The notes under the pieces are model-generated. The model did no database searches and was not told the DNA's origin. It worked only from the letters and a program-made list of their open reading frames with translations. From the NCBI GenBank assembly GCA_036398095.1, contig DASWHR010000027.1, positions 8,174 to 72,173 of the forward strand: a stretch of 64,000 bases of DNA. Reading direction: 5' to 3'. Shown piece by piece: positions 3,228 to 40,245 of this stretch (positions within the stretch are counted from its first letter, which is position 1; every line of letters starts with the position of its first letter). Both the position numbers and the translations under genes were made by a program. The DNA is from Actinomycetota bacterium. GTDB taxonomy: Bacteria; Actinomycetota; AC-67.

Positions 3228-4139
3228 TCAGCGCGTGATGGTGCTTCCGAGGAGGATTCCGTTGGCCCAGTAGGCGCCGGTTGGCCCGTCCGGAAGCAGG
3301 TCGTAGGTCGCGGATGCCTCGCGCCAAACGACATCGATGCCTTCGACGGTCGCGCCGTCCATCGGGTCCCCGGCCGCGAGCGCTCCGATGGGCCGGCCGC
3401 GGGCGTCGGGATGGGCGGATGCCGCGACCAGAACGCGGCCGTCGCTGAGCGTCAGGCGCAGCATCGGATGAGGCGATCCGACCGGACGCCGAACCGTCCG
3501 AAGGACCGGCGCGGCCACGCGGCGCCCGCGCGCGTCCATCGTCCATACAAGATCGCCGGAGCGGAGCGTGGTCACGTCGCGATCCCCCGACGGTGTCGCG
3601 ATCAGCGTGCCGGCCGCCAGGCAGATCGGACAGAACGCGTCGACGGGTCGCTGCGTCGCGACGTGAATCGAGCCGTTGCGGGCGATCGTGCCGTCGATCG
3701 CGGTCGCGTCGCCTTCGGTCCCCTCGTTAACGGTGAACCGCCAAGCGGCATCCGATGAGGTCAGCGCGATCACCCGGATTCGCTTGTGCACTTCGTAGAT
3801 GCGCATCGTCTGGTCGTCGGTGAGCGGCTCGCGATAGCCGAGCGACGCGCGGATCGCGGCGGCTTCCCTGGATCGTTCCGCGATTCGGTACCACGCGAGG
3901 CCGCGCTCGCGGCGCTCCTGCGGTCCGACGCCGACCGGATAATCGTCGGGATCGCAGAAGAAGATGTCGAAGCGCTCGTCCAGGGCGAGGCGCGCGTCCC
4001 ACTCGTCGGTGATCACGCCGCCGCTCGCCTGCGGCGAGGCCGACGGCGAAGGGGAGGCCGACGGCTCCGTGCGCTGTGGCCGATACGTGCAGGCGCCGGC
4101 AACCAGGGCCAGCAGCGCGACGAGCGCGATCCGCTTCAC
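3228..4139 (-). CDS. lipoprotein with C-terminal Hint (Hedgehog/intein-like) domain
   Basis: Lipobox VKRIALVALLALVAGAC, then a Ser/Pro-rich linker. The C-terminal block CPICLAAGTLIATPSGDRDVTTLRSGDLVW...LLPDGPTGAYWANGILLGST looks like a Hint module. The GTG start at 4139 overlaps the TGA of the upstream oxidoreductase (GTGA). Confidence 0.65.
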   Translation of the reverse strand: MKRIALVALLALVAGACTYRPQRTEPSASPSPSASPQASGGVITDEWDARLALDERFDIFFCDPDDYPVGVGPQERRERGLAWYRIAERSREAAAIRASLGYREPLTDDQTMRIYEVHKRIRVIALTSSDAAWRFTVNEGTEGDATAIDGTIARNGSIHVATQRPVDAFCPICLAAGTLIATPSGDRDVTTLRSGDLVWTMDARGRRVAAPVLRTVRRPVGSPHPMLRLTLSDGRVLVAASAHPDARGRPIGALAAGDPMDGATVEGIDVVWREASATYDLLPDGPTGAYWANGILLGSTITR

Positions 4140-5656
4140 GCTCCCAGCGCCACCCGCGCGGCGTTGCGGCCGGCTGTGCCCATCACGCCGCCGCCCGGCC
4201 GCGCTCCCGATCCGCACAGATACAGCCCCTCGATCGGTGTGCGGTAGTCGAAGCGCTCGCCGAAGGACTGCTCGGGCGTGATGGCGCCGTGAAAGATGTC
4301 ACCGCCGGTCAGCGCGAGCCGCTCTTCCAGGTCCGGCGCCGCGAGCACGTCCTCGGCCACGATCGCATCGCGAAGGTTCGGCGCGTAGGCCGCCAGCGCC
4401 GCCACCGCATTCTCGCGCGCTGCGGCGCGAACCAGGTCCCAATCCTCCGGAAGCGACGGCGCGTACTGCGTGAACGCGCTGAGCACGTGCCGGCCGGCCG
4501 GCGCCAGGGTCGGGTCGGTCGAGGACTGAAGAAAGACCTCCATGTACGGCCGCGGCGAGGGCATCGCGCCGCGAGCGTCCTCGCGCGCCTGCTGGATGTA
4601 TTCGATCGAAGGACAGATCTCGACCGTGCCGAAATGCTGCGACGCCGGCTCGGTTCCCGGCAGCATCGAAAACGACGGCAGCTCGCTCAGCGCCAGGTTC
4701 ACCTTCACCACCGCGCCCTCGTAGCGCCACGACGCGACCCGCTCGGCGAACGGCGACGGCAGCAGTCCCTCATCCAGCAAAGAACCGAACGTGACCGCCG
4801 GCGTCGCATTCGACAGCACCATCGGCGCTTCGACCAGCTTCCCGCCGGCAACCTCCACGCCTCGCACCCGCCCGCCGTCCACCACGATCCGCGCAACCGG
4901 CGACGAGACGCGGATGACCGCGCCCGCCTCACGCGCCGCCGCCGCGATCGCCTGCGTCACGCCGCCCATCCCGCCGCGCACGTACGCCCACGTCCCGTCC
5001 ATGCCGTTCAGCTCGCCGCCGATCGCGTGGAACGTCATGATCCAAGCGGTGCCGTCCTCCTCCGGCCCCAGCGCCGTCCCGATGATCCCTTGCCCGGCCA
5101 TCGGTCCTTGGATCTCGGGCGCGCCGAAGAACGAGCGCACCGTGCCGGCGCACGAGCCCGACACGCACATCCGGTACATCTCGTCTCCCAACGCGGCCCG
5201 CACGCCGTCCAGACCCGGCGGATCGGGCGACTCGACGAGCGGGCGGATCGCGGCGACCGCATCATCCCAGAATGCGCTCCAGCGCTTGTGTGCGTCCGCG
5301 TCGGCGGGACTGATCTTCGACAGCTCCGCGCGCGTGCGCTCGCCGTCGCGCCACACGAAGTAGTGGCGGCCGTCGGGCAGCGGCACGAACATCTGCGGAT
5401 CCTTCGGCGTGAACACCAGGCCGTGACGCGCCAGCTCCAGCTCGCGGTAGACGTCCGGCCGCAGCAGCGACAGCGAATACGACGCGGTCGAGATCCGGTA
5501 GCCCGGCGCGAGCTCTTCGGTGACGGCCGCGCCGCCGATCACGTCGCGCCGTTCCAACACCAGCACGCGCTTGCCGGCGCGCGCCAAGTAGGCGGCGGCG
5601 ACCAGTCCGTTGTGGCCGGCGCCGATCACGATCACGTCGTGTCGTTCGGCGATCAT
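4136..5656 (-). CDS. phytoene-desaturase (CrtI)-like FAD/NAD(P)-dependent oxidoreductase
   Basis: N-terminal Rossmann motif DVIVIGAGHNGLVAAAYLARAGKRVLVLE. About 500 aa with a C-terminal GSGARPGGGVMG motif typical of the CrtI/amine-oxidase fold. Confidence 0.75.
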   Translation of the reverse strand: MIAERHDVIVIGAGHNGLVAAAYLARAGKRVLVLERRDVIGGAAVTEELAPGYRISTASYSLSLLRPDVYRELELARHGLVFTPKDPQMFVPLPDGRHYFVWRDGERTRAELSKISPADADAHKRWSAFWDDAVAAIRPLVESPDPPGLDGVRAALGDEMYRMCVSGSCAGTVRSFFGAPEIQGPMAGQGIIGTALGPEEDGTAWIMTFHAIGGELNGMDGTWAYVRGGMGGVTQAIAAAAREAGAVIRVSSPVARIVVDGGRVRGVEVAGGKLVEAPMVLSNATPAVTFGSLLDEGLLPSPFAERVASWRYEGAVVKVNLALSELPSFSMLPGTEPASQHFGTVEICPSIEYIQQAREDARGAMPSPRPYMEVFLQSSTDPTLAPAGRHVLSAFTQYAPSLPEDWDLVRAAARENAVAALAAYAPNLRDAIVAEDVLAAPDLEERLALTGGDIFHGAITPEQSFGERFDYRTPIEGLYLCGSGARPGGGVMGTAGRNAARVALGA

Positions 5657-5696
5657 TTCATCACTGTACGCGAGCCCGCACGCCGCGACCGGGACG

Positions 5697-34074: not shown

Positions 34075-35106
34075 CTACAGCGAGATCGTCAGCTCGACGA
34101 CGGGAACGTCGACGACCAGGATCGGGTCGTCGGAATTCAGCGGGATCTCGATCAGCGGCTTCGGCGGCTCGGCCGGCTTCCGCGTGGATGCCTTCGGCGT
34201 GGTGGCGGCCGGCTGCTTGACGGTCGCGCTACGCGCGGCTCGCGGCTTCGGCGCGACCGGGGCCGGCGCGGCCGGCGCGGCCGGAACTTCGGCGCCAAAC
34301 TCGGCGCCAAATTCGCCGCCGGTCGGGTGGCCGACGCTCAGCACGTCAAGGTTCAGCGCGCTCAGAAGATTGCGGACCAGATTCACGACCGAGCCGACCA
34401 GATCGGTGGGGGTCGGAGCGGGCGAGGCCGCGGACGGCGCGGACGTTCGGGCGCCGAATATGGGCGTGATTCCGCCGGTCGGCTGCGCGACCGGCGCGGC
34501 CGTCGCAGCGGGTGCGGCCGGGTTCGGCCGCCGGGTCTCGCGGATTCCCAGAACCTGCGTGCGTCGCGTGGGTTGCGTGCCGGGCGTCGTCGCCGTTGGA
34601 CGCACGGACGGCGTCGCCTGCTCGCCGTTCGTCGGCGGCGTGCTCGGCGGGAACGTGTTGGCGACGGTCGGGATCGGAGTGATCGCCGTGCCGCCCCCCG
34701 GAACGCGGTCGCCGCGCGTCGTCGTGAAGAACACCGTTGCCACCAGCACCAGCACCGCAGCGGCCGCCGCGCCGCCGATCTGCCACAGGCGTGCCGCGTC
34801 GCCGCGTCCGAGCAAGCGGCTCATCAGTCGCGCGCGCATGTCGCCCGGCAGTGGCCGAGGCGCGTCCAGGTCGTCGAAGTGAGCCGCGAAGCGCTCGTTG
34901 TGCTCTTCGCCGGTCAATACGTCGGTCAGGCGCGTGCGCATGTCCGTCGGGAGGCGCTTGGGGCGGTCGAGGATGTAGAGCAAGTTTTCGTCGGCCGGCG
35001 CGAGCGTGCTCGCGACCAGCGCGCCTTCCAGGCGCTCGCGCATCCGCGCAGGAATCGGTCGCGGCGCGTCGGCACCGCGAAGCAGCGTCGCCGTCCGGTC
35101 AGCCAC
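34075..35106 (-). CDS. putative anti-sigma factor: repeat-containing cytoplasmic domain, one TM, Pro/Thr/Ala-rich ectodomain
   Basis: Its start overlaps the ECF sigma stop by 8 bp. The N-terminus has three copies of P[RK]x[LI]PxxMRxRLxxxL. The TM is LWQIGGAAAAAVLVLVATVFF. The rest is low-complexity PT-rich sequence ending ...ILVVDVPVVELTISL. Confidence 0.5.
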   Translation of the reverse strand: MADRTATLLRGADAPRPIPARMRERLEGALVASTLAPADENLLYILDRPKRLPTDMRTRLTDVLTGEEHNERFAAHFDDLDAPRPLPGDMRARLMSRLLGRGDAARLWQIGGAAAAAVLVLVATVFFTTTRGDRVPGGGTAITPIPTVANTFPPSTPPTNGEQATPSVRPTATTPGTQPTRRTQVLGIRETRRPNPAAPAATAAPVAQPTGGITPIFGARTSAPSAASPAPTPTDLVGSVVNLVRNLLSALNLDVLSVGHPTGGEFGAEFGAEVPAAPAAPAPVAPKPRAARSATVKQPAATTPKASTRKPAEPPKPLIEIPLNSDDPILVVDVPVVELTISL

Positions 35107-35698
35107 GGTTCGGCTCCAGTTGCCGGCGCATCGCGTCCCGGGCGCGTTGGAGCAGCGACTGGATCTGCACGCGCGGCCGCCCGACTTCGGCGGCGATCTG
35201 CTCGACGGAGTACTCGTCGAGATACTTCAGCACGAGCACCTGCCGGTGCAACGGAGCAAGGTTCCCGAGCGCGCGCAAGACCTCGTCGCGGATGTCGATG
35301 ACGACGTGCGGCTCATAGGGCCGCGGCGCCGGCTGGTTGGCGACCGCCGTCTGCTTTCGTTCGCGCTCCCAGTGACGAGCGATCCGGCGGCGGGCGATGG
35401 TGCACAGCCATGTGTTGAGCGCCGCCTCCCCTCGGAACGAGTCGGCGGAGCGCACTCCTTCGATGAGCGTCTCTTGCATGATGTCCTCGGCGATGTCCTC
35501 ATTCCCTCCGACACGGGCAAGCACGAATCCGTACACAGAAGGAAGATGCTCATCCATCAGCGTCCGGACTGAGTCCGGGTCGCCGGCGGCTACGGCACGC
35601 AACAGATCGGCCTCCCGAGAAGCTGATCCGACCAATTCCATGCGTTCCCCCGTAGCTTCGTGGTCGTCCGAGGACGAAATCAACCGGTGTGTCGCCAT
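35099..35698 (-). CDS. ECF-type sigma-70 family sigma factor
   Basis: Region 2 (LMDEHLPSVYGFVLARVGGNEDIAEDIMQETLIEG) and region 4 (HRQVLVLKYLDEYSVEQIAAEVGRPRVQIQSLLQRARDAM). Start is ATG 35698 or 35641. The listed ORF extends further as noise. Confidence 0.85.
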   Translation of the reverse strand: MATHRLISSSDDHEATGERMELVGSASREADLLRAVAAGDPDSVRTLMDEHLPSVYGFVLARVGGNEDIAEDIMQETLIEGVRSADSFRGEAALNTWLCTIARRRIARHWERERKQTAVANQPAPRPYEPHVVIDIRDEVLRALGNLAPLHRQVLVLKYLDEYSVEQIAAEVGRPRVQIQSLLQRARDAMRRQLEPNRG

Positions 35699-35830
35699 TC
35701 CAGCAAACCTCTCGCCGTTGTGCCAGGAAAGGTTCGGCCCGCCGTTCTGGTTTTCCTGTTGATACAGACGTGAACCTGCCCGGCCGGCGGAGTATTTTTT
35801 GGCCGGGAAATGTCGCACCGCGCCCGCTAC

Positions 35831-35866
35831 CGCTACAATTCGGGCACGCACGGGTGGCGAGTCGGG
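35831..35866 (+). promoter_or_regulatory. candidate sigma-70-type promoter (-35 TGTCGC / -10 TACAAT) in the divergent intergenic region
   Basis: TACAAT hexamer with a 17-nt spacer from a weak -35, oriented toward the 36024 gene. This is sequence-only support. Confidence 0.3.
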
Positions 35867-36023
35867 GAGGAGCGGCAAACCGGCAGGGACGCTGCTTTCG
35901 AAATATTCCGCCATCGACTGGAACCTGAGCGGTTGATAAGAGCATCCTCATAGCACGAAGGGGCTAGAAAGCGGTAGCCCAAATGGGAGGGTGCCGCACG
36001 ATCACGGTCCGGGGGGACACAAG

Positions 36024-37385
36024 ATGAAGAAGTTGCGTTGGACTCGCCGGTTGACGGCGAGCATGGCGCTGGCGGCCGTAGCGATCGTTGCTACCGGTCC
36101 CGGGGCTTCCGCGGCAGTCGACACCTACGCCGCACAGGCCAGCGGTACCACGCTGAGCCTTTCCGTTTCTCTGCCGCTCGGCGACGTCGTCGCCGGGATT
36201 CTCGGCAACGCCGGTGTGAAGGGGAACACGATCTCCGAGCGGATCTCCTTCTCGAACGCCACCGCCGACGTCACCTCGACGCAGTCGAAGGGTTCGGCGC
36301 TCGGTCAGGTGTTCTTCGGAACGCTCGACCCGGTCATCCTTCAGGTCTCGCGCCTGGTGGGCTACTCGAAGGACAAGCTGCCGGAGGTCTCCTCCAGCGT
36401 GACCAGCGCATCGGCCGACGGTGTCGCCGACAGCAAGAAGGACGCAATCGCGGCGGTTGACATCGGCCCGATCCACGTTGGCGTCGGTGAGGTCGAGTCC
36501 ACGGCCAAGCGTGCCGGTCGCCTCGTCTCGACGAAGTCGGCCGCTCGCCTGCTGGGCATCAAGGTCGACCTGGCGTCCGTCTTGAGCGAGGGCGCGATCG
36601 CGGACCTGCTCAAGCCGGTGACCGACCTGCTCGACGGCACAGGCAGCCAGCCCGGTCTGATCGACCAGCTCAACGGCTTGCTCGACGGCGTCGAGGACAC
36701 CCTCAAGGGTGCCGGCCTCGACGTGGACCTGACGATCCCGGCGATCAAGGACCTGCTGTCCAAGCCGCTCGTCAACGTGGGCATCATCGAGTCGGTTAGC
36801 GAGACGGGCTTCAACGGCGCGTCGCGCTTCGCCAAGGGCGTCACCCGCCTGGCGAACGTCGACTTGCTCGGTGGCTTCATCCACCTCGACGCGATCAACA
36901 TCGAGTCGTTCGCGTCGATCGACGGCACGGCCACGGGCGCACTCGCCTCAGGCATCCAGCGCATCGTCGGCCTGAAGGTCGGCGGCAACATCGTCAACCT
37001 GAACACCGGCTCGCTGCAGGTGCTCGGCAAGACGATCCAGATGCCGGTGGACCTGGCGCAGTTGCTCAACGTGACGGTGGACGCGCTCGGCCTGAAGGTT
37101 CAGGTCGCGCAGAAGCCCGAGATCGTCCGCACCGCCACGCACGCTCGTGCCGCGACGTCGTCGCTGCACGTCGGTCTGGCTCCGAAGCTCCTCTCGGGCG
37201 CGCCGCTGTTCTCGATCGCGCTCGACGGTCCGGCTTCGGTCGCGGATGTCCGCGGCGGAAACGTCCTGGGCGTCAAGGAAGTTCGCATCCCCACGACGGG
37301 TGTGAGCGACACCGCGATGCTGCTGGTCGGCATGATGCTGGTCGGTCTTGCCATCGGCGCTCGCAAGTTCGCGCTCAGCAAGTAA
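36024..37385 (+). CDS. large secreted surface protein with C-terminal TM anchor (non-canonical IPTTG sorting-like motif)
   Basis: GGGGGGA RBS. Signal peptide MKKLRWTRRLTASMALAAVAIVATGPGASAA. About 450 aa rich in V/L/G/K. The C-terminus is ...RIPTTGVSDTAMLLVGMMLVGLAIGARKFALSK. The gene is divergent from an ECF sigma. Confidence 0.6.
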   Translation: MKKLRWTRRLTASMALAAVAIVATGPGASAAVDTYAAQASGTTLSLSVSLPLGDVVAGILGNAGVKGNTISERISFSNATADVTSTQSKGSALGQVFFGTLDPVILQVSRLVGYSKDKLPEVSSSVTSASADGVADSKKDAIAAVDIGPIHVGVGEVESTAKRAGRLVSTKSAARLLGIKVDLASVLSEGAIADLLKPVTDLLDGTGSQPGLIDQLNGLLDGVEDTLKGAGLDVDLTIPAIKDLLSKPLVNVGIIESVSETGFNGASRFAKGVTRLANVDLLGGFIHLDAINIESFASIDGTATGALASGIQRIVGLKVGGNIVNLNTGSLQVLGKTIQMPVDLAQLLNVTVDALGLKVQVAQKPEIVRTATHARAATSSLHVGLAPKLLSGAPLFSIALDGPASVADVRGGNVLGVKEVRIPTTGVSDTAMLLVGMMLVGLAIGARKFALSK

Positions 37386-37403
37386 CGCCTCATCCGATAG
37401 ACA

Positions 37404-37431
37404 CGAAGGGCCGCCTGCGGGCGGCCCTTCG
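37404..37431. terminator. bidirectional stem-loop terminator
   Basis: GAAGGGCCGCC-tgcg-GGCGGCCCTTC forms a perfect 11-bp GC-rich stem between convergent genes ending at 37385 (+) and 37473 (-). The flanking U-tracts are weak. Confidence 0.55.
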
Positions 37432-37472
37432 TCTTACTCGGCGCCTTGTTCGGCGCCTTGCTCGGCGACAGC

Positions 37473-37808
37473 TCACTCGCGGCCGTATTTCTCCTCCCAG
37501 CGCTTCCTGCTCAGCCCCGACTTGGGGTCGTACGTGTCCCCCTGCAGGCGTCGGCGCCAGCGCGAGTGAAGCGCTTGCCGGCTCGTGCCCATCAAGAAGG
37601 CGAGGCGATCCCAAGAGAGCCCCCGGGATCGTGCTTTCCGGACGATTTTCTCCTCGAAGATCACGCTCAGGCGATTGAGCTCGCCGACCGCCTCCGCCGC
37701 CGCCCAGACATCGGCGTCGGCACGCATGATCAGGCGCGCGCACTCCGCGAGGTTGTCCCGGCAGCGAGCGATCGTCAAACCACCCGATGGATCGTGCGGA
37801 CGCGGCAT
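37473..37808 (-). CDS. small HTH-domain protein (putative transcriptional regulator)
   Basis: 111 aa. The C-terminal GLSWDRLAFLMGTSRQALHSRWRRR is helix-turn-helix-like. A 13-bp palindrome GTCTCGTCGAGAC lies just upstream of the ATG. Confidence 0.5.
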   Translation of the reverse strand: MPRPHDPSGGLTIARCRDNLAECARLIMRADADVWAAAEAVGELNRLSVIFEEKIVRKARSRGLSWDRLAFLMGTSRQALHSRWRRRLQGDTYDPKSGLSRKRWEEKYGRE

Positions 37809-39492: not shown

Positions 39493-40245
39493 ATGCGATC
39501 CAGGGCTCGTTTCATGATTCCGTTGATGCTGCTCGCGGTGATGGGGCTGGCGCCGCTGCCGTCCCACGCCGTGACGCAGATGTTCATCATGAACGACGTC
39601 AATTCCAGTCTGGACGTCTACCAGCCGGCCTACACCCCCACGAGCGCGCTGCTTGCGCCCGGGACGGAGGTCAAGTGGCGAAACGACGACTTCGGGTCGC
39701 GATCGATTCATACAGCCACGGCCTATTACGGCGCGGCCTTCGCGTCGTCGGCCGTCGATCCCGGCGCCACGTTTACCACCACCTACGCGGGCGGAACCGC
39801 CCTGTTTCGATGCCTGTACCACTCGTCGCTCGATATGACCCTCACCCCGCCGGCGTGTAGCGGCATGTGCGGCGCGCTGCACGACGCCACCCAGGATCTG
39901 GCGCCGCCCACGGTGTCGATCACGACCAGTGACGGATTCGTCTTCACCGGCGGCGTCCGCATCGACGGGGTCGCCTCCGACGATCGGGCGGTCAAGACGA
40001 TCGCGATCACGTTCCGTCCGATCGCCGAAGTCCCGACCGTTCTTCCCGCCAAGAGCGTCGTCGCGCAGTGTGCCGGATGCGACGGCCCGTCCGCGAAGTG
40101 GAAGACGTTTCAAGATCCGGGCGTGAAAGGGCAGGCGCCGTTCTTGACGATGCCGCCGGGTCCATACCGCGTCGAGGCGATCGCGACCGATCCGCACGGC
40201 AACACCGGCTCCGCGCAGCCGATCACCATCTACGTACTCACCTAG
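39493..40245 (+). CDS. secreted cupredoxin-like protein with additional C-terminal beta domain
   Basis: GAGGGGG RBS. Signal peptide MRSRARFMIPLMLLAVMGLAPLPSHA. Candidate type-1 Cu ligands are H (RSIHTA), C-x2-H-x4-M (ALFRCLYHSSLDM). Trimmed from the long listed ORF. Confidence 0.55.
   Translation: MRSRARFMIPLMLLAVMGLAPLPSHAVTQMFIMNDVNSSLDVYQPAYTPTSALLAPGTEVKWRNDDFGSRSIHTATAYYGAAFASSAVDPGATFTTTYAGGTALFRCLYHSSLDMTLTPPACSGMCGALHDATQDLAPPTVSITTSDGFVFTGGVRIDGVASDDRAVKTIAITFRPIAEVPTVLPAKSVVAQCAGCDGPSAKWKTFQDPGVKGQAPFLTMPPGPYRVEAIATDPHGNTGSAQPITIYVLT

Follow-up and report, generated by a model that had tools for sequence, protein, structure and literature searches.

A choice-of-anchor P family surface protein with a predicted sortase-type IPTTG signal beside an ECF sigma factor gene in an Actinomycetota bacterium

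The window analysed here is a 64,000-nt stretch of DNA from an Actinomycetota bacterium (contig DASWHR010000027.1). Its G+C content of 67.8% marks it as high-G+C DNA, and coordinates given without a locus number refer to the forward strand of this 64-kb window. The subject of this work is a gene that encodes a predicted surface protein carrying the pentapeptide IPTTG near its C-terminus, together with the divergent gene for an extracytoplasmic function (ECF) sigma factor and the intergenic region between them. Homologous loci fetched for comparison are given as L-numbers, and homologous proteins as P-numbers. Loci with a divergent sigma gene (the window, L009 and L024) are termed type A; those in which the sigma, anti-sigma and surface-protein genes follow one another in the same direction are termed type B. 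The main features of the locus are as follows.

36024-37385, + strand: open reading frame (ORF) for a choice-of-anchor P family surface protein, type A paralogue, 453 aa (ORF, model NF040603, 100% identity to HEX9695180.1)
36011-36016, + strand: Shine-Dalgarno-like GGGGGG, 7 nt 5′ of the ATG (sequence reading; kept in L009 and L024)
36024-36116, + strand: predicted signal peptide, residues 1-31 (sequence reading; RR and hydrophobic core conserved in alignments A1 and A5)
36762-37007, + strand: stretch matching the choice_anch_P model, residues 247-328, profile positions 44-124 of 185 (NCBIfam)
37287-37301, + strand: IPTTG pentapeptide, residues 422-426, positional homologue of LPXTG/LAXTG (family alignments)
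37302-37382, + strand: spacer VSDTA, hydrophobic segment MLLVGMMLVGLAIGA and basic tail RKFALSK (sequence reading)
35699-36023, no strand: divergent intergenic region of 325 nt separating the genes of the sigma factor and the surface protein (sequence reading, locus comparison)
35099-35698, - strand: 199-aa ECF sigma factor outside the BldN family (Pfam Sigma70_r2 and r4_2; TIGR02937, 91 bits)
34075-35106, - strand: putative anti-sigma factor, single-pass, 343 aa (position and topology)

The surface-protein gene and its product

The ORF begins with an ATG at 36024, ends with a stop codon at 37383-37385 and comprises 453 codons with a third-position G+C (GC3) of 0.88. An earlier note on this DNA, made from the sequence alone, had described a large protein of 454 aa; the ORF is real, but it reads 453 aa, and at that length 'large' holds only in a relative sense. 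The ATG at 36024 was preferred as the start over an upstream GTG at 35991 because L009 and L024 have retained the GGGGGG run as well as the ATGAAGAAG start. The N-terminus consists of MKKLRWTRR, a hydrophobic stretch and, by inspection, a cleavage-like site (ASA/AV). This basic n-region, hydrophobic core and site, together with the conservation of the RR and the core in the alignments, bear out the signal peptide proposed in the earlier note. The n-region also holds a twin arginine (W-T-R-R-L-T-A) that is kept through most of the family and might be of the twin-arginine translocation (Tat) type; the Tat model TIGR01409 gave no match. A Tat-type signal on a sortase substrate is unusual.

The window protein scored 31.8 bits against the NCBIfam model for choice-of-anchor P proteins (NF040603; curated cut-off 27 bits, E = 1.3e-7) and is thus a member of this family. 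An identical protein from an Actinomycetota metagenome-assembled genome (MAG), HEX9695180.1, has already been named 'choice-of-anchor P family protein' by NCBI. A Pfam search of the protein returned no match. A word-indexed search of 5.8e9 sequences yielded 12 family proteins, and 77 family representatives were found at E<=1e-3 among 1.84e9 cluster representatives. The likeness to NF040603 is limited, however, in that only residues 247-328 match and distant full-length relatives fall below the cut-off or are not matched; the architecture of 450 aa therefore appears to define a sub-group that the model covers only loosely. A literature search on 'choice-of-anchor' returned nothing on family P.

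Structure prediction of the ectodomain, which the earlier note had proposed as a check, gave an outline but no PDB-based fold assignment. Two AlphaFold2 models (predicted local distance difference test, pLDDT, 59.8 and 65.6; predicted template modelling score, pTM, 0.55 and 0.65) contained long antiparallel beta-hairpins and two helical inserts. Foldseek hits in the PDB had TM-scores of <=0.26; they were rejected as no more than the likeness that long beta-hairpins have in general. No relative emerged from a profile search of PDB sequences, and a comparison of the N-terminal half with the C-terminal half revealed no significant internal duplication. The product is probably a Sec-exported member of a small, Actinomycetota-restricted family with a beta-rich ectodomain.

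The C-terminal sorting signal

The tripartite C-terminus described in the earlier note was confirmed by sequence reading: IPTTG is followed, after the spacer VSDTA, by a hydrophobic segment of 15 residues and the tail RKFALSK. In 12 close homologues the pentapeptide is either IPTTG or HPRTG, with P423, T425 and G426 invariant. Across 50 full-length members (22-86% identity) only three columns are invariant, namely P387, T425 and G426, so that the two residues flanking the scissile bond of an LPXTG-type pentapeptide are both conserved. Near members carry IPTTG, HPRTG, TPRTG, LPTTG, SPTTG, NPRTG, LTKTG, LSRTG, FAKTG or NTRTG, followed by a conserved helix and tail, GPxLLGxAxLVRRFALSK; the tail pattern [RK][RK][FYL]x[LMVI] is common to 42 family members. 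Distant members have LPRTG or LAxTG (LARTG, LAQTG, LAHTG, LAYTG), a hydrophobic stretch and RRRR. The C-termini of the family form a graded series, from IPTTG-like in near members to canonical LPRTG/LAxTG in distant ones. The remote members P0102 (LARTG), P0072 (LPRTG) and P0103 (LAFTG) sit in the conserved sigma/anti-sigma cassette described below.

Because the LPRTG or LAxTG of the distant members occupies the aligned position, IPTTG is the positional homologue of the standard cell-wall sorting motif. It is a diverged descendant of LPXTG/LAXTG, that is, a sortase-type signal. The label 'pseudo-LPXTG' used in the earlier note undersells a motif whose TG is invariant and which aligns with the LPRTG/LAxTG of distant members. 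Sortases cleave the T-G bond, and LAXTG is the signal recognised by actinobacterial sortases of class E (PMC5148588). The IPQTG of the pneumococcal pilin RrgB, with the variant residue I at P4, is a working sortase C signal (PMC5640630). The invariance of T-G amid drifting neighbours is best explained by continued processing in this family. In the mechanism proposed, the hydrophobic segment and basic tail would hold the precursor in the membrane, and a sortase would cleave IPTTG between T425 and G426 and link the protein to peptidoglycan.

As judged from its sequence, the window protein resembles sortase substrates of the actinobacterial type, while also passing the choice-of-anchor P model. 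With LPXTG/LAXTG substrates such as the long chaplins ChpA-C of Streptomyces coelicolor, anchored by the class E sortases SrtE1/E2 (PMC5148588), it shares a signal peptide, a TG pentapeptide, a hydrophobic segment and a basic tail. The likeness extends to the LAxTG/LPRTG aligned in distant family members and to the paralogous type B copies, which appear downstream of a BldN-type ECF sigma. The window protein differs from chaplins in its IPTTG, in the lack of a match to generic anchor hidden Markov models (HMMs), in its conserved tail RKFALSK and in having no sequence similarity to them. RrgB likewise has isoleucine at P4 followed by P-x-T-G, but belongs to an unrelated family, and neither a pilus gene cluster nor a nearby class C sortase is present here.

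Several results weigh against sortase processing. In a first alternative, the lineage would no longer process the protein with a sortase, and the C-terminus would be only a membrane anchor with a short cytoplasmic tail (RKFALSK), the xPxTG being a relic or having a structural role at the membrane surface. No ORF of the TLxTC type was found in the 64-kb window, and the called genes of the fetched loci include no sortase Pfam domain; the rest of the MAG lay outside this search. The generic anchor models PF00746 and TIGR01167 gave no match even at E<=1; these are short models that often miss actinobacterial signals. The first motif residue is I (H in relatives) and not L, motif positions 1-3 have drifted widely in the near clade, and we know of no characterised sortase that accepts LTKTG, FAKTG, NTRTG and the other near-clade motifs together. 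The near-clade tail VRRFALSK and the helix GPxLLGxA are unusually conserved, far more so than in ordinary LPXTG signals, as if the helix were retained, and four family members (P0076, P0081, P0085 and P0086) end in a plain transmembrane segment and a long cytoplasmic tail without a TG motif. However, the invariance of T and G in 50 members, down to 22% identity and among varying neighbours, would be hard to maintain without selection, and the canonical LPRTG/LAxTG of distant members points to a sortase signal as the ancestral state. A C-terminus serving only as a membrane anchor is therefore considered unlikely.

The conservation of the tail also bears on a second alternative, in which the near-clade C-terminus (x[PTAS]xTG with GPxLLGxAxLVRRFALSK) would be a distinct signal, read by a dedicated enzyme or a specialised sortase and not by a housekeeping class E enzyme. 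Its C-terminal profile is unusually well defined in 42 members, unlike the LPRTG/LAxTG plus RRRR of distant ones, and at P4 and P3 the pentapeptide agrees with none of the sortase class consensus motifs given in PMC5148588. A tail-only profile searched against 5.8e9 proteins, although a weak test, recovered nothing beyond fragments of this family; a sorting system for a single protein family would be unusual, and no locus has a candidate enzyme gene linked to it. This alternative is regarded as very unlikely, and a sortase-type IPTTG signal is retained as the preferred reading.

In L022, the gene directly after that of the family member (4136-5689) encodes a 517-aa protein that ends in NLPRTG, a hydrophobic segment and RRRR, and that gives a weak match to PF00746 (E = 0.055).

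Sigma factor modules and the two paralogues

The sigma factor of the window scored 57.2 bits against the BldN family model TIGR02952, far from the cut-off of 206.45, and so does not belong to that family. The putative anti-sigma gene overlaps the sigma stop codon by 8 nt and encodes a protein with one hydrophobic helix and without a match to any Pfam or NCBIfam family. Its cytoplasmic N-terminal 100 residues contain three copies of [IL]PxxMRxRL (IPARMRERL, LPTDMRTRL and LPGDMRARL), followed by the transmembrane helix and by a low-complexity exterior rich in Pro, Thr and Ala. A divergent orthologue of the sigma gene is present in all three type A loci. The surface protein of L009 is 72% identical to that of the window and its sigma 79%; for L024 the surface protein is 69% identical. 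The association with an ECF sigma, as the earlier note had it, is thus upheld: the adjacency is kept in the three type A loci, and the family lies consistently beside ECF sigma/anti-sigma modules.

The closest relative of the window protein, P0002 (87% identity overall and 89% over the mature part), lies in another neighbourhood, L001. The genes there run in the order class A penicillin-binding protein (PBP; opposite strand), apurinic/apyrimidinic endonuclease, response regulator, ECF sigma, DUF5667 membrane protein and surface protein; an acyltransferase and an epimerase (opposite strand) come next, and then bS22, an HTH_17 protein and further genes. The order sigma, DUF5667 anti-sigma, surface protein was found in L001, L004, L020/L021 and L022, with family members in L020/L021 and L022 that are only 21-27% identical. 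L023 has the type B order, but its intervening gene encodes 54 aa without a Pfam match. Type B loci are flanked by rex-hemACD-like and proC-like genes. On one side of the cassette (L020, L021, L023, L001) lie rex-like, hemA/C/D and glutaredoxin-like genes and the class A PBP; on the other are a HAD hydrolase, the acyltransferase, the epimerase, bS22, HTH_17 and proC/proline dehydrogenase. This neighbourhood appears to resemble the region around bldN in Streptomyces and Rv0500-Rv0512 in M. tuberculosis.

Against TIGR02952 the type B sigmas reached 155-205 bits, 60-100 bits above other models, with the same cut-off of 206.45. The window sigma is 28% identical to them, and its anti-sigma is unrelated to the DUF5667 anti-sigma. 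The motif CGTYAC-N15-18-CGTTG occurred at nine sites in 142.7 kb, compared with an average of 0.6 and at most 3 in shuffled sequence. Three sites fall between the genes for sigma and anti-sigma (L020 2790, L021 8292 and L022 757), and six upstream of the surface-protein gene (L001 6164, L004 6477, L005 693, L010 1482, L011 525 and L020 4361). Each of the nine lies on the coding strand, a short distance 5′ of the anti-sigma or surface-protein gene. L022 holds a relaxed copy as well, and L021 9863 is a further position. With a spacer of 16-17 nt, CGTYAC-N16-17-CGTTG is a candidate promoter for the BldN-like sigma of type B loci; this agrees with the published BldN-dependent promoter of rsbN (PMC4255298). 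In the window no promoter of this kind was found. The type B genes are preceded by intergenic regions of 450-530 nt (L004 6291-6740, L005 442-964, L010 1289-1822 and L011 328-804), of which some 300 nt are strongly conserved, including a leader of about 230 nt from the candidate promoter to the ATG.

The rsbN gene of Streptomyces is transcribed from a BldN-dependent promoter of its own, and the genes for the chaplin and rodlin surface proteins are likewise driven by BldN (PMC4255298, PMC6101532). The type B arrangement looks like an ECF regulon with this surface protein as the adjacent target. The likeness to BldN/RsbN (PMC6101532, PMC4255298) is confined to type B: the best sigma model is the BldN family, the next gene encodes a single-pass anti-sigma with a sigma-type promoter motif of its own, and the targets are cell-surface proteins. 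There are also differences. The window sigma is not BldN-like, the type B sigmas lie just or well below the cut-off, and the type B anti-sigmas carry DUF5667. Convincing BldN orthologues have been described only in morphologically complex actinomycetes (PMC4255298).

The comparison of the window with L001 at the DNA level involves two more features.

36064-37433, + strand: tract homologous to the type B paralogue (L001 6470-7838), 84% DNA identity (blastn, sliding identity profile)
37403-37432, no strand: terminator hairpin with a 13-bp G+C-rich stem and a 4-nt loop, without a T-tract, between two convergent genes (folding; within the tract shared by the paralogues)

DNA similarity between the two loci is confined to this tract, whose 5′ boundary lies within the signal-peptide sequence and whose 3′ boundary lies shortly beyond the terminator; in a sliding profile, identity peaks at 92-98% around 36974-37213. 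The two paralogues are unrelated in their upstream DNA and signal-peptide start, and so are their sigmas (28% identity). Signal-peptide starts follow the gene context, being MKK..W.RR in type A and MRNGV in type B. Over the mature region, the window protein (type A) is 89% identical to P0002 (type B) and 72% to P0005 (type A), and P0005 is 80% identical to P0004 (type B). The mature regions thus group by lineage, while grouping by type is seen for the 5′ ends and flanking sigmas; this pattern suggests that the paralogues have undergone gene conversion. The simplest reading would be that of two paralogues in one genome with a mature part in concerted evolution; the window copy would retain a promoter region, a signal-peptide start and a sigma of its own, and gene conversion would be the most likely cause of the near-identity of the mature part. 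Residence of the two copies in the same MAG or genome is itself only probable, as judged from accessions 2,320 apart (HEX9695180.1 and HEX9697500.1) and from the presence of both contigs in the same two samples.

The terminator hairpin folds at -31.9 kcal/mol (z = -6.7; none of 200 shuffles was as stable) and is the only strongly supported RNA structure here. It is shared with a convergent ORF of 111 aa (37473-37808, - strand). A further ORF (39499-40245, + strand, 248 aa) has a signal-peptide-like start; neither of these two ORFs has a Pfam family.

The intergenic region and control by the adjacent sigma factor

The extent of the intergenic region given in the earlier note, 325 nt from 35699 to 36023, is judged to be right because the sigma start at 35698 is backed by conservation of the N-terminus (MATHRLISS..HE.TGERM) at the protein level in L009 and L024. 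The elements that the note had placed in it can be read in the sequence: TACAAT lies at 35834-35839; the arms of a first hairpin, CCCGGCC and GGCCGGG, lie at 35779-35785 and 35801-35807, with the T6 inside the loop; and those of a second, GGGCTA and TAGCCC, lie at 35961-35966 and 35975-35980 with an 8-nt spacer. The GGAAC box is also present, but at 35920-35924 and not at 35916. Folding of the two hairpin regions against dinucleotide shuffles gave z = -1.5 and -1.2, and the whole 325 nt folds at -124.3 kcal/mol compared with a shuffle mean of -125.2 (z = +0.16). TACAAT and both hairpins are unconserved in L009 and L024, without compensatory changes, and GGAAC is replaced by CGAAC and GAAAC in these two orthologous loci. 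The description of the region as structured is not supported, since its hairpins are no better than shuffles and are unconserved, nor is the reading of TACAAT and GGAAC as promoter elements, as they show neither statistical excess nor conservation in the two loci. A sigma-70 promoter scan of the region found no sigma-70-like hexamer pair, and its sole terminator-like match was the T-run inside the first hairpin, which is within shuffle expectation. An Rfam scan of 35400-37600 at E<=1 returned only chance matches (mir-2483, sR39, RsmY), far below gathering scores.

A different part of the region is conserved.

35921-35988, + strand: conserved upstream block, from about 100 to 35 nt 5′ of the ATG (alignments A4 and A7)

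Within it, 35921-35943 (GAACCTGAGCGGTTGATAAGAGC) is identical at 23 of 23 positions in L009, and 35922-35943 (AACCTGAGCGRTTGATAAGAGC) at 21 of 22 in L024; conservation is weaker, and decreasing, in a second block (35951-35988). The distance of the conserved block to the surface-protein ATG is constant at about 100 nt, while that to the sigma gene varies; the block therefore belongs to the surface-protein gene, for which it may be a candidate promoter, operator or leader element. Exact-pattern scans of metagenomes and genomes with the conserved 18-mer CTGAGCGGTTGATAAGAG returned only the known L009 contig and chance matches without the gene.

A 17-nt imperfect direct repeat, GACGTGAACCTGCCCGG (35767-35783) and GACTGGAACCTGAGCGG (35916-35932), with its copies offset by 149 nt, is also present in the intergenic region, as is a 12-nt inverted repeat, GGCGGAGTATTT (35786-35797) and AAATATTCCGCC (35901-35912); both partly overlap the blocks conserved in L009. 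Short two-copy repeats are often due to chance.

The conserved adjacency suggests that the window gene is probably regulated by the neighbouring ECF sigma. The divergently encoded sigma would probably drive transcription of the surface-protein gene, and the co-transcribed membrane anti-sigma would hold the sigma inactive until an envelope signal is received. It would also be conceivable that this sigma is not the regulator, that the gene is served by a housekeeping-type promoter or by a transcription factor acting at 35921-35988, and that the adjacency is inherited synteny. Searches of the type A intergenic region speak for this alternative and against control by the sigma: neither strand has an ECF-like -35/-10 pair with conserved spacing, including pairs of the GGAA-N-CGT type, no motif is common to both strands (a k-mer comparison gave only the palindrome CCGGCCGG), and the conserved 23-nt block lacks a CGT-type -10 that is both conserved and correctly spaced. 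Moreover, the anti-sigma of the window is a putative one, so designated only from its position and topology, and the three type A loci known are all fairly close relatives. Two unrelated sigma/anti-sigma modules flank one small family, however, and such linkage would be unlikely to arise twice independently without a functional connection; in addition, the type B surface-protein and anti-sigma genes share a promoter-like motif. Inherited synteny is thus considered a somewhat unlikely explanation, and control by the adjacent sigma is preferred.

Taken as a whole, the evidence makes it fairly probable that the window gene encodes a Sec-exported protein of family P with a sortase-type IPTTG signal, that it is under probable ECF sigma control, and that it is a gene-converted paralogue of the copy found with the BldN-like module. 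A bolder combination was also considered, namely a lineage-specific sorting signal (xPxTG...VRRFALSK) recognised by a specialised sortase, two sensor-specific gene-converted copies and an ancestral circuit leading from BldN to a surface protein. The copies may then be wired to different ECF sensors, one of the BldN-like/DUF5667 type and the other of the unclassified type, with distinct promoters and signal-peptide starts. This combination is held to be quite unlikely; if it were true, a BldN-type sigma, its anti-sigma and a sortase-anchored surface protein would represent the ancestral form of the BldN-chaplin circuit of Streptomyces.

For the window gene itself, the result mainly corrects the record, as the protein is an already named family member. 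At the level of the family, a small, uncharacterised and probably wall-anchored group of proteins is encoded, in a conserved arrangement within a core chromosomal neighbourhood, downstream of a BldN-like ECF sigma and its DUF5667 anti-sigma, and the candidate promoter CGTYAC-N16-17-CGTTG may offer an entry point to the targets of BldN-type sigmas outside sporulating actinomycetes.

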